DNA from: Candidatus Saccharimonadota bacterium
GTDB taxonomy: Bacteria > Pseudomonadota > Gammaproteobacteria > Enterobacterales > Enterobacteriaceae
Direction: 5' to 3'
Assembly (NCBI GenBank): GCA_036689235.1
Contig: CP144769.1
Span: 118,481-150,480 of the forward strand
Length of the DNA stretch: 32,000 bases
Positions 17,667 through 19,706 of this stretch are shown here, one piece after another. Both the position numbers and the translations under genes were made by a program. Below the pieces are notes generated by a model. That model was not told the DNA's origin and ran no database searches. It worked only from the letters and a program-made list of their open reading frames with translations. Every line of letters begins with the position of its first letter. The first letter of the stretch is position 1.

Positions 17667-18407
17667 TTAGTAATATACATTCATTAAATATAAACCATAA
17701 GGTTTTATAAGATTAATATTAAAAAAACTTTTATTTCTATAATAAAGAAAATCTTTAATTCAAAATATAGAATATTTATAAGTACCAACTAATAATAAAC
17801 TACTTACTATATTTCTAACCATATGATATAAAAAAGAATCAGCTATTATTTCAAAAAAAATAAAATTTTTTAATTTATAAATATTTAAATAAAAAATAGT
17901 TTTATAAAAATTATTAGATTCACACTTAGGTGATTTAAATGAATTAAAATTATGTTTACCAATTAAATATCTTGAAGCTTTAAACATAAAATCTATATTT
18001 ATAGAATCATTAATAAAAGTTACTAATTTATTTAAAAAAACTAACTTTTTATTACCATTATATATTATATATATATATTTTTTAGCAATAGTATCATATC
18101 TAGCATTAAATTTAATAGAAACATATTTAATTCATCTAATATAAATATAAATTGGTAAAATATTATTTAAATAATTTAATATAGAATTAATATTTATATA
18201 TTTTTTAATATCAAAATGAAAAATTTGACCTATACTATGGACACCTACATCAGTTCTACTTGAACAAAATATTTTTATATTATATTTAAATAATAAAAAC
18301 AAAGAATTTTCTATTATATTTTGTAAACTATTATCATTTTTATATTGTTTTTGTCAACCATGATATAATGACCCATTATATTTTACACAAGCTAATAATC
18401 TATACAT
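17667..18407 (-). CDS. truA: tRNA pseudouridine(38-40) synthase TruA; reading frame interrupted twice (+1, then -1 about 65 nt downstream)
   Basis: ATG 18405-18407. Motifs YNGSLYHGWQKQ, catalytic RTDVGVHS, FNARYD and, C-terminally, HMVRNIV; stop at 17667-17669. The starting frame hits TAA at 18060-18062. Homology continues in the +1 frame (NNGNKKLVFLNKLVTFINDSK) until TAG at 17993-17995, then returns to the original frame at about 17999. Confidence 0.8.
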
Positions 18408-18408
18408 T

Positions 18409-18741
18409 TTAATATTTATCTTTACAATAACGTAAATAATATAATTTAGATTTTTTTATTTTTTTATTTTTTTTAATTATATTAATAGAATGTATTAAGG
18501 GAGAATAAAATTTAAATAATTTTTCAATACCTTCATTATATGAAATTTTTCTTAAAACAAAACAAGAATTAATACCTTTTTTTTTTATAGAAATAACTTT
18601 TCCTTTAAAAGATTGTATTCTTTTCTTATTTAATTCAAAAATTCATATTTTTACTTCTATAATATCTCCACTTATAAAATTAATTTTTTTATTAATATTA
18701 ATATTATCTTTTTCTATATAACTTATAATATTATTTTTCAT
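18409..18741 (-). CDS. rplS: 50S ribosomal protein L19
   Basis: 110 codons verified, with one TGA=Trp at 18643-18645. ISGDIIEVKIWIFE..KKRIQSFKGKVISIKKKG...FVLRKIS.NEGIEKLF...SKLYYLR matches the L19 pattern. AGGA lies 9 nt upstream of the ATG. Confidence 0.9.
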
Positions 18742-18760
18742 TATAAATTCCTAATATAAA

Positions 18761-19463
18761 TTATTTTTTTTTATTAATTAAAAATAAAGATTTTAATAAA
18801 TATGGTTTTAACAATAATGTTTTAATAAACGACATTTTAAATCTTCATAAAAATATTTCTTTATGATTTCCAGACAATAAAATTTTTGGAACATTTAAAT
18901 TATTAAAAACTCTAGGTCTAGTATAATTAAGGAAATCCTAATAATTTATTTAAATAATTAAAAGAATCAAATTTATATGACTTTATATTATTAATAACAC
19001 CAGGTATTTTTCTTATTAAAATATCAATTACTACTAAACTAGAAATTTCTCCACAACTAATTATATAATCTCCTATAGATAATTCCATATCAATATAATT
19101 ATCAATAATACGTTGATCTATACCATTATATCTACCACAAATAAAAATTAATGAATTATAATTTAATAATTTTTTTATTATATAATCATTAATTATTTTA
19201 CCTTGTGGAGATAAATAAATTACTAAAGAATTAAAATTTTCTTTTTTAATACTATTTATAGATAAATATAAAGATTCTGGTTTAAATAATAAACCAGCTC
19301 CTCCACCATAAACCCTATCTTCATAATTATTTTTATAAATAAATTTTTTTAGATCTATTAAATTTATACTAATTATTTTTTTTTTTATAGCTTTATATAT
19401 TAAACCATTTTTAAAAGGAGAATTAAAAAAATCAGGATTTATAGTTATAATATTAAAATTCAT
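18761..19463 (-). CDS. trmD: tRNA (guanine37-N1)-methyltransferase TrmD; needs a +1 frameshift at 18929/18930
   Basis: The N-terminal 178 codons (YGGGAGLLF, YLSPQG, CGRYNGIDQR, SIGDYIISCGE) end ...LLGFP-TAA at 18927-18929. The conserved C-terminal part [28 protein letters not shown]... continues in the +1 frame to TAA at 18761-18763. Span is 703 nt (3n+1). Confidence 0.88.
18926..18939 (-). promoter_or_regulatory. candidate +1 recoding site in trmD: AGGA-UUU-CCU-UAA-U
   Basis: On the mRNA strand: AGGA (18939-18936), UUU, CCU (18932-18930), UAA (18929-18927). The +1 frame carries TAG at 18940-18938, so the shift must occur within GAUUUCCUU. The architecture matches prfB (SD-like element, 3-nt spacer, shift codon, stop). 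Confidence 0.4.
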
Positions 19464-19466
19464 AAT

Positions 19467-19706
19467 TTACTTATTTATTTTTCTATATTTTTTTATTATA
19501 CATAAAACTCTTTTAGAAATTAAAGCTCCATATTTAATCCATTTATTTAAAAGTTTTAAATTTATAAAAATTAAATCATTAAATGGATTATAAAATCCTA
19601 ATTTTTTTATAAATTTACTATTACGAAAATATCTTCTATCAGCTACTACAATATTATATATAGGTTTTTTTTTTCTACCATAACGAGATAAACGTATTAT
19701 AACCAT
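19467..19706 (-). CDS. rpsP: 30S ribosomal protein S16
   Basis: 79-aa [28 protein letters not shown]...LGFYNP is the classic S16 N-terminus. Confidence 0.92.

Follow-up and report, generated by a model that had tools for sequence, protein, structure and literature searches.

The 32,000-nucleotide stretch of contig CP144769.1 analyzed here (the window) comes from the genome of Candidatus Stammera capleta, which has a G+C content of 13.3%. It carries trmD, the gene for the methyltransferase responsible for N1-methylguanosine at tRNA position 37 (m1G37). We found that trmD is interrupted by a one-base insertion right after the codon for Pro178, that nine Stammera lineages have the break at this codon, and that the +1 frame downstream of it evolves as constrained coding sequence. 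Full-length TrmD is very probably produced by ribosomal +1 frameshifting, whether regulated or not. With moderate confidence, we favor a +1 recoding of trmD that has a dependence on m1G37 built into it. We also propose, tentatively, that the obligatory shift is set by the methylation state of tRNA-Pro and is a selected feedback device that a clade of Stammera has maintained over tens of millions of years. Stammera is an extracellular digestive symbiont in the gut of cassidine leaf beetles. Its genomes are annotated with genetic code 4, and both the symbiosis and the Stammera crown have been placed at about 62 million years ago (bioRxiv 10.1101/2023.12.12.571295). In the window genes, tryptophan is encoded by 40 TGA and 5 TGG codons, and all 27 stop codons are TAA.

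The first trmD open reading frame (ORF1) ends with TTA TTA GGA TTT CCT TAA, in which CCT TAA occupies positions 18932-18927. The +1 frame resumes at AAT (18928-18926), overlapping the stop codon, and the stop of the second open reading frame (ORF2) lies at 18763-18761. The window reads TTT CCT T AAT where in-frame relatives read TAT CCT AAT. The earlier note had implied more than one break in trmD, but there is only one. The features of the gene are as follows.

18761..19463, minus strand: trmD, both ORFs, frame-broken once
18927..19463, minus strand: trmD ORF1 (0 frame), 178 codons plus TAA, PF01746, ending in ...LLGFP and the stop
18926..18932, minus strand: trmD shift site CCT TAA T, comprising the Pro178 codon CCU, the 0-frame stop UAA, and the +1-frame codon AAU (Asn)
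18761..18928, minus strand: trmD ORF2 (+1 frame), 55 codons plus TAA, C-terminal tRNA-binding domain, NYTRPRVF...

The ORF1 product contains the SPOUT N-terminal domain and the linker, with the DSF motif that holds the catalytic Asp. Among the window genes, trmD ORF1 alone has a Pro codon directly before its stop.

The trmD break is genuine and is not a sequencing error. The 178-amino-acid (aa) ORF1 is identical in the Logan assemblies of SRR23946950 and SRR10017625, two SRA runs of the same strain, whose contigs match the window at 99.99 to 100% identity over 8.8 kb and 1.4 kb. Three further runs contained a variant that shares this junction. The earlier note had allowed that resequencing might remove the break; instead, independent assemblies from five SRA runs in total retain it. 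The junction reads TTTCCTTAAT or TATCCCTAAT, with no run longer than 3 nucleotides (nt), and is thus not a homopolymer. In a search of a protein collection, many of the Stammera TrmD gene calls ended at 178 to 179 aa, and others were 225 to 250 aa long.

We read the DNA of the trmD junction in 22 Stammera loci. A CCU form, GG[A/T] TTT CCT TAA T with AT ACT AGA CC after it, occurs in the window, CP144815, CP144817, CP144813, CP043985, CP144768, and a lineage from three further SRA runs, seven lineages in all (labeled WIN, L008, L004, L012, L034, L013, and L039, with WIN denoting the window). A CCC form, GGT TAT CCC TAA T, was found in two deep-branching lineages, CP144780 and CP043987 (labels L032 and L033), whose TrmD is 66 to 67% identical to that of the window. 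The in-frame form, TAT CCT AAT TAT ACT, occurs in CP043989 and in eight genomes of 297 to 312 kb. The comparison with related symbiont genomes that the earlier note had called for revealed a junction kept in nine lineages, eight besides the window. The break falls at the same codon in each, and UAA directly follows the Pro codon in all nine. A scan of species-representative genomes found close relatives of the reconstructed TrmD in Candidatus Stammera capleta chromosomes only, and Zinderia or another beta-symbiont was accordingly rejected as the source.

The 171 Pro codons of the window comprise 99 CCT, 70 CCA, 1 CCC, and 1 CCG, and CCC occurs at the shift site of L032 and L033 although it is very rare, with 1 to 3 copies per locus in L032, L033, and CP062308 (label L035). 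A neighbor-joining tree was built from 1187 aligned residues of GyrB, RpsP, RplS, TruA, and Eno, and 300 bootstraps were scored on bipartitions. Its topology was (large-genome clade, (L035, ((L032, L033), (L003, (L013, (WIN, ((L012, L034), (L008, L004)))))))), with the relevant nodes supported at 95 to 100%. The CCU-UAA lineages form a single clade whose sister, L003, is in frame, and the CCC-UAA pair branches below both. This pattern fits either of two histories. Either one codon underwent two independent single-base duplications (CC[C]T AAT and CCT[T] AAT), or a single gain lies behind both forms, which needs a later CCC-to-CCT change and an exact reversion in L003. The identity of the housekeeping proteins is 76% between WIN and L013, 71% between L032 and L033, 67% between WIN and L032, and 63% genus-wide. 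Because divergence within the frameshifted groups is this large, the lesion appears to have been kept for a substantial fraction of the roughly 62 million years, as a rough proportional estimate.

The only local feature noted is a 6-bp inverted repeat that contains the shift site, ATTAGG-ATTTC-CTTAAT (window 18926-18942, minus strand). In-frame relatives have a perfect version, ATTAGG-ATAT-CCTAAT, and L032 and L033 have ATTAGG-TTATC-CCTAAT. Since in-frame relatives carry the repeat too, we attribute it to the Leu-Gly-Tyr-Pro-Asn coding sequence. At most, it may promote indels through a hairpin, and repeated insertions at the Pro codon could have this cause. The hairpin would be unwound on the ribosome and is therefore unlikely to be a stimulator.

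The downstream +1 frame evolves as constrained coding sequence. In eight frameshifted genomes, the +1-frame domain is 53 to 55 codons long, ends at the same point, and contains no stops or indels; the remaining two frames of this region contain 2 to 4 and 7 to 11 stops. The ratio of nonsynonymous to synonymous substitution rates (dN/dS, Nei-Gojobori) in these genomes is 0.07 to 0.39 for the C-terminal domain and 0.19 to 0.5 for the N-terminal domain, and in-frame orthologues gave similar values. Four phylogenetically independent pairs together differ by 26 nonsynonymous (nd) and 36 synonymous (sd) changes, where about 19% synonymous changes are expected under neutrality (binomial p=8e-12). Variable sites are distributed as 16, 11, and 32 over codon positions 1, 2, and 3 of the +1 frame (p=0.002), and the N-terminal domain shows a likewise periodic pattern.

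Judged by its sequence, the fused product makes up the whole of TrmD in colinear order and has a predicted methyltransferase role. It matched Pfam PF01746 over residues 24-216 with 141.1 bits (cut-off, 27.3), a match that spans both domains. It also aligned over residues 3-231 with solved TrmD structures (E=2e-48), ungapped at the junction (llgfpnytrp versus LLDCPQYTKP). One of these structures is 7myq (E=2.3e-48), in which query residues 3-231 align with chain residues 11-244, and the DSF and YTRP...LLSGNH regions are colinear.

Because re-initiation and slippage are disfavored, for reasons given below, +1 ribosomal frameshifting within G-GA-TTT-CCN-T remains. The sole site common to both junction forms is the Pro codon, where a CCC-U to CCU or a CCU-U to CUU slip would occur with UAA in the A site. 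The sequence CC[C/U]-[C/U] is described as particularly slippery for tRNA-Pro, with its +1 shifts suppressed by m1G37 (PMC4519876). Both CCU-UAA-U and CCC-UAA-U belong to this class. Moreover, a Pro codon 5' of a stop is an established +1 site in the tail-shaft gene of Listeria phage PSA (PMC5009743). In the proposed mechanism, which would be ribosomal rather than an RNA-level correction, peptidyl-tRNA-Pro would sit in the P site while the 0-frame UAA in the A site is slow to be decoded. The ribosome would shift by +1, and decoding would resume at AAU. Ribosomes that do not shift would release a 178-aa product without the tRNA-binding domain.

Such a site may also sense the activity of its own product. 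Since tRNA-Pro is a substrate of TrmD and m1G37 suppresses its slip, a trmD gene that needs the slip should be self-correcting. Low TrmD would leave less m1G37 on tRNA-Pro, less m1G37 would allow more shifting, and more shifting would yield more full-length TrmD, closing a homeostatic loop. We regard such a circuit through m1G37 as plausible. If the site is a feedback device, it may have originated more than once at Pro codons, as CCU-UAA, as CCC-UAA, and as a separate CCC-AGG-A in CP062308. Self-correction would make an indel at this spot of trmD unusually tolerable, and this could account for the same codon being hit twice and for lesions at rare C-containing Pro codons.

A second route may exist in the CCU clade. 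The codon before Pro has changed from TAT to TTT there, and only there is a UUU-C slip possible. In this route, tRNA-Phe would slip from UUU to UUC while the A-site CCU awaits an under-modified tRNA-Pro, and Leu rather than Pro would be placed at the junction. The frameshift would also keep the output of TrmD under that of the flanking ribosomal proteins in the operon. Escherichia coli expresses trmD far below its operon neighbors by means of mRNA structure. By analogy, a genome with 13% G+C could use a frameshift for the same down-tuning, as a benefit that does not exclude the others.

Several observations weigh against the favored explanation. The frameshift is dispensable, since the sister lineage L003 is in frame and does without it. 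The long persistence of the lesion may reflect only the rarity of an exact 1-nt reversion, in which case a selected regulator would fit no better than a drift-fixed, merely tolerated indel. Ordinary window genes contain CCT-T 26 times, and the stop codon, read only by release factor 1 (RF1), must therefore give most of the kinetic window. UAA is read by RF1, and an organism that reads UGA as Trp has no release factor 2 (RF2); prfA, which encodes RF1, is present in the window at 5569-6630. Re-pairing of tRNA-Pro from CCU to CUU is poor unless G.U pairing is tolerated, as it involves a G.U pair or a position-2 mismatch, whereas the CCC-U to CCU shift of L032 and L033 re-pairs well. No tRNA-Pro gene was found in the window, in the 9 kb past its right edge, or in the related loci. 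The search for a stimulatory RNA structure flanking the site found nothing significant (z=-1.37) and no covarying or compensatory pairs. AGGA or AGGU does lie 3 nt upstream of the Pro codon, at the spacing seen in prfB. However, this motif coincides with conserved Leu-Gly codons and is present in in-frame relatives too, and motifs resembling a Shine-Dalgarno (SD) sequence are in weak use, preceding only 6 of 28 genes where about 3.7 are expected.

Two tRNA genes with G34 anticodons, tRNA-Val(GAC) and tRNA-Ser(GGA), are kept in the window at 14318-14391 and 19763-19849. Their retention indicates a tRNA set larger than the minimum of one tRNA per codon box. A tRNA-Pro(GGG) isoacceptor could thus exist beside or in place of the UGG one, which bears on CCU-U re-pairing through G.U wobbles.

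The strongest alternative accepts the same +1 recoding and takes it as constitutive and purely corrective. A slightly deleterious indel would have been fixed by drift in a tiny clonal population, and background slippage at the Pro-stop site would supply enough TrmD, with no sensing of m1G37 and no adaptive role. We consider this somewhat unlikely, but it is a serious rival. It draws support from the in-frame state of L003 and of all larger-genome Stammera, from the absence of a detectable stimulatory element, and from an N-terminal dN/dS that is somewhat higher in frameshifted pairs (0.19 to 0.5) than in some in-frame pairs (0.08 to 0.35). Corrective frameshifting is, in addition, a recognized class (PMC5009743). 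However, the shifting tRNA is itself a substrate of TrmD, and m1G37 is reported to suppress its slips (PMC4519876), so that some dependence on TrmD is hard to avoid. The site also either arose twice at one codon or survived a CCC-to-CCT change, and in a 13% G+C genome indels are expected to strike A/T runs rather than a rare codon that contains C.

The other alternatives do without ribosomal frameshifting. In one, which we find very unlikely, trmD is a split gene whose two polypeptides, the second made by re-initiation after the UAA, assemble into an active enzyme. The break does lie near the boundary between the linker and the C-terminal domain of TrmD, and that domain is under selection. However, the frameshifted genomes share no conserved ATG, GTG, or TTG where the +1 ORF begins or close to that point. 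The sole Met (in RFKMSF) is 30 codons into this ORF and is missing from L032 and L033, and no SD-like motif is placed for re-initiation. The +1 frame is open merely 3 codons upstream of the junction, and this short opening, together with the lack of a conserved start, argues against a separately initiated C-terminal polypeptide.

Slightly less probable again is a correction at the RNA level, in which transcriptional slippage or editing deletes the extra base and leaves the mRNA in frame. Transcriptional slippage rescues indels in the poly(A) tracts of endosymbionts (reviewed in PMC5009743), and gyrB of the same genome may offer such a poly(A) case. However, slippage needs long homopolymers of about 9 nt or more, and the runs at the trmD junction are at most 3 nt, which argues against it.

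It is extremely improbable that trmD is a decaying pseudogene or that its 178-aa N-terminal fragment alone matters. The gene is formally interrupted, and gene callers return only the 178-aa ORF. However, the absence of stops in eight diverged genomes, the low C-terminal dN/dS (0.07 to 0.39), and the matches across the junction reject both decay and N-terminal-only function, and the third-position periodicity and the conserved C-terminal length and stop position agree. The same selection tests already contradict the scenario of relaxed frame fidelity in the earlier note, in which loss of TrmD and TruA raises global +1 shifting and rescues gyrB, because a TrmD whose +1 domain is under purifying selection has not been lost. 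Finally, an error of sequencing or assembly in the reference genome, which might be suspected in so AT-rich a genome with a length-ambiguous-looking A18 tract in gyrB, has a negligible chance, since the trmD junction is not a homopolymer and recurs in five SRA-run assemblies and in nine separately assembled genomes from two projects.

The proposed arrangement resembles several known systems. In prfB, low RF2 raises +1 frameshifting at CUU UGA C, and the gene is thereby autoregulatory. Like prfB, trmD is a bacterial chromosomal gene split into a 0-frame ORF and a +1 ORF, with a shift-prone P-site codon before the 0-frame stop. Both genes also have a motif with AGG 3 nt before the shift codon, although an SD-like role in trmD is unsupported. 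The logic proposed for trmD is also that of prfB, in that the product would suppress the event needed for its own synthesis. Unlike in prfB, the sensor would be the m1G37 of the P-site tRNA-Pro and not competition at an A-site stop; in addition, the trmD stop is UAA, read by RF1, and the shift comes late, at codon 178 of 233. The antizyme gene (OAZ) likewise shifts +1 at a sense codon before a stop, UCC UGA U, as a negative-feedback sensor. However, antizyme belongs to eukaryotes and is a sensor of polyamines, and its shift has 5' and 3' stimulators, whereas none were detected at trmD.

The phage PSA tail-shaft gene shares with trmD the P-site Pro codon, the A-site 0-frame stop, and the +1 slip of tRNA-Pro (PMC5009743). 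It makes two structural products at a fixed ratio, whereas trmD is a housekeeping gene of the cell, and its product modifies the very tRNA that slips. The +1 errors of m1G37-deficient cells involve the same codon class, tRNA, and modification as the trmD site (PMC4519876), and this gives a mechanistic basis to expect a TrmD-dependent shift. Those shifts, however, are error events or laboratory suppression of his-operon mutations, whereas the trmD site lies within trmD itself and is evolutionarily retained. Corrective recoding, at mitochondrial +1 sites and by poly(A) slippage in Buchnera and Blochmannia, also compensates in expression for an indel in a drift-reduced genome. The A18 tract of the window gyrB fits the poly(A) class. 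In contrast, the trmD site is not a homopolymer, and deep lineages either share it or acquired it repeatedly, at a slip site of tRNA-Pro. In the genetics of the Bjork laboratory, trmD mutants reportedly act as +1 frameshift suppressors.

We compared the intactness of gyrB, rpsP, trmD, rplS, truA, and eno across 18 Stammera genomes. The neighbors of trmD form a minus-strand cluster with it, which the earlier note rightly described as tightly packed around intact rpsP and rplS genes. In order, the gaps are 3, 17, 1, and 14 nt, and both ribosomal protein genes are single ORFs. The features other than trmD are as follows.

19467..19706, minus strand: rpsP (ribosomal protein S16), intact, 79 aa, single ORF at the head of the cluster, PF00886 on the identical L001 gene call
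18409..18741, minus strand: rplS (ribosomal protein L19), intact, 110 aa, PF01245 on the identical gene call
17667..18407, minus strand: truA (tRNA pseudouridine 38-40 synthase), intact under table 4, 246 aa
17308..17652, minus strand: hydrophobic ORF, 114 aa, no Pfam match, outside the frameshift

The earlier note had taken both trmD and truA as frame-broken, each with a +1 shift and UAA in the 0-frame A site. This holds for trmD but not for truA, which is one uninterrupted 246-codon ORF under table 4, with two in-frame TGA codons read as Trp. The TruA protein carries the catalytic RTDVGVH motif and matches PF01416 with 116 bits. Gene calls in other assemblies are 246 to 249 aa long (246 aa in L001), and truA is a single ORF in 18 of 18 Stammera loci. 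A frame break in truA is ruled out by the table-4 translation, the independent gene calls, and the 18 intact loci. Consequently, the modifier circuit suggested from a coincidence of two genes loses that coincidence, and what stands of it is the +1 site of trmD at Pro-UAA in nine lineages.

The operon rpsP-trmD-rplS lacks rimM, which in E. coli stands between rpsP and trmD. The 114-aa ORF at the end of the cluster, labeled cvpA-like in the earlier note, is extremely rich in Phe and Ile and has no Pfam match. ORFs of 116 to 126 aa occupy the same position in L033, L034, L035, and CP144808 (label L038), likewise without a Pfam match. The last base of the window ORF adjoins a tRNA-Met gene (17235-17308) on the opposite strand.

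The earlier note had also named gyrB as a frame-broken gene whose expression global +1 shifting could help. The gene (22483-20062, minus strand) is broken at an A18 homopolymer, positions 21734-21751, in a Lys-rich patch (FYFKKKKK-N). This patch is in frame in ten other Stammera genomes with an A-run of varying length (A17 and in frame in L003), and gyrB is one uninterrupted ORF in 17 of 17 related loci. A raw-read (Logan) contig of the same strain ends in the tract with A17, which would restore the frame. The gyrB break is thus a matter of homopolymer length, either a sequencing ambiguity or a case of poly(A) slippage. It is a separate case, specific to the window genome, and is not evidence for global +1 shifting.

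A different lesion interrupts trmD in CP062308, which reads ATA CCC A GGA GTA at 3460-3470 and whose 0 frame stops 7 codons later. This gene needs a +1 shift at the rare Pro codon CCC, followed by the rare AGG; the Arg codons of the window are 183 AGA, 3 AGG, and 28 CGT. CP144808, which is 91% identical to CP062308, has ATA CCA GGA and is in frame. Either a third, recent event struck a Pro codon in CP062308, or its lesion is a sequencing error in a C-run.

The earlier note had proposed a genome-wide census of frame-broken genes under table 4. It was run locally, over about 41 kb of the genome (the window and 9 kb past its right edge) and over the six genes in 18 genomes. No broken gene besides trmD and gyrB was found in the 41 kb, and among the six genes only trmD (in nine genomes) and one gyrB were broken.

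The modification m1G37 is the textbook guard against +1 slippage at proline codons. TrmD itself is both essential and a target for antibiotics. The type of site (a Pro codon and a stop, with a +1 shift) and the feedback logic (prfB and antizyme) are already known. What would be new is the gene involved and the sensing of tRNA modification through the slipping tRNA itself. No frameshift in trmD or in any Stammera gene is reported in the open-access papers and bioRxiv preprints searched, and a comprehensive frameshifting review from 2016 does not mention trmD. If the proposal is true, this would be the first cellular frameshift-based feedback that senses tRNA modification, with an enzyme gauging its product via reading-frame errors. 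It would also be the second autoregulatory +1 frameshift on a bacterial chromosome, beside that of prfB, and a natural, evolutionarily tested reporter of m1G37-dependent frame maintenance. The finding bears on how indels in essential genes are tolerated in extremely reduced, drift-dominated genomes. Because automated annotation truncates TrmD or labels it a pseudogene in these genomes, inventories of a minimal tRNA-modification set in symbionts would wrongly score it as lost.

Three further features of the window were observed away from trmD. The longest homopolymer, 22 nt at 19922-19943 beside a (TA)n tract, lies between tRNA-Ser(GGA) and tRNA-Asn(GUU), in the interval 19850-19990. The convergent genes rluD (plus strand) and yqgF/ruvX (minus strand) overlap at their ends by 4 nt (26991-26994). 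A 32-nt overlap (29866-29897) joins sufC and sufD, which are read in different frames.

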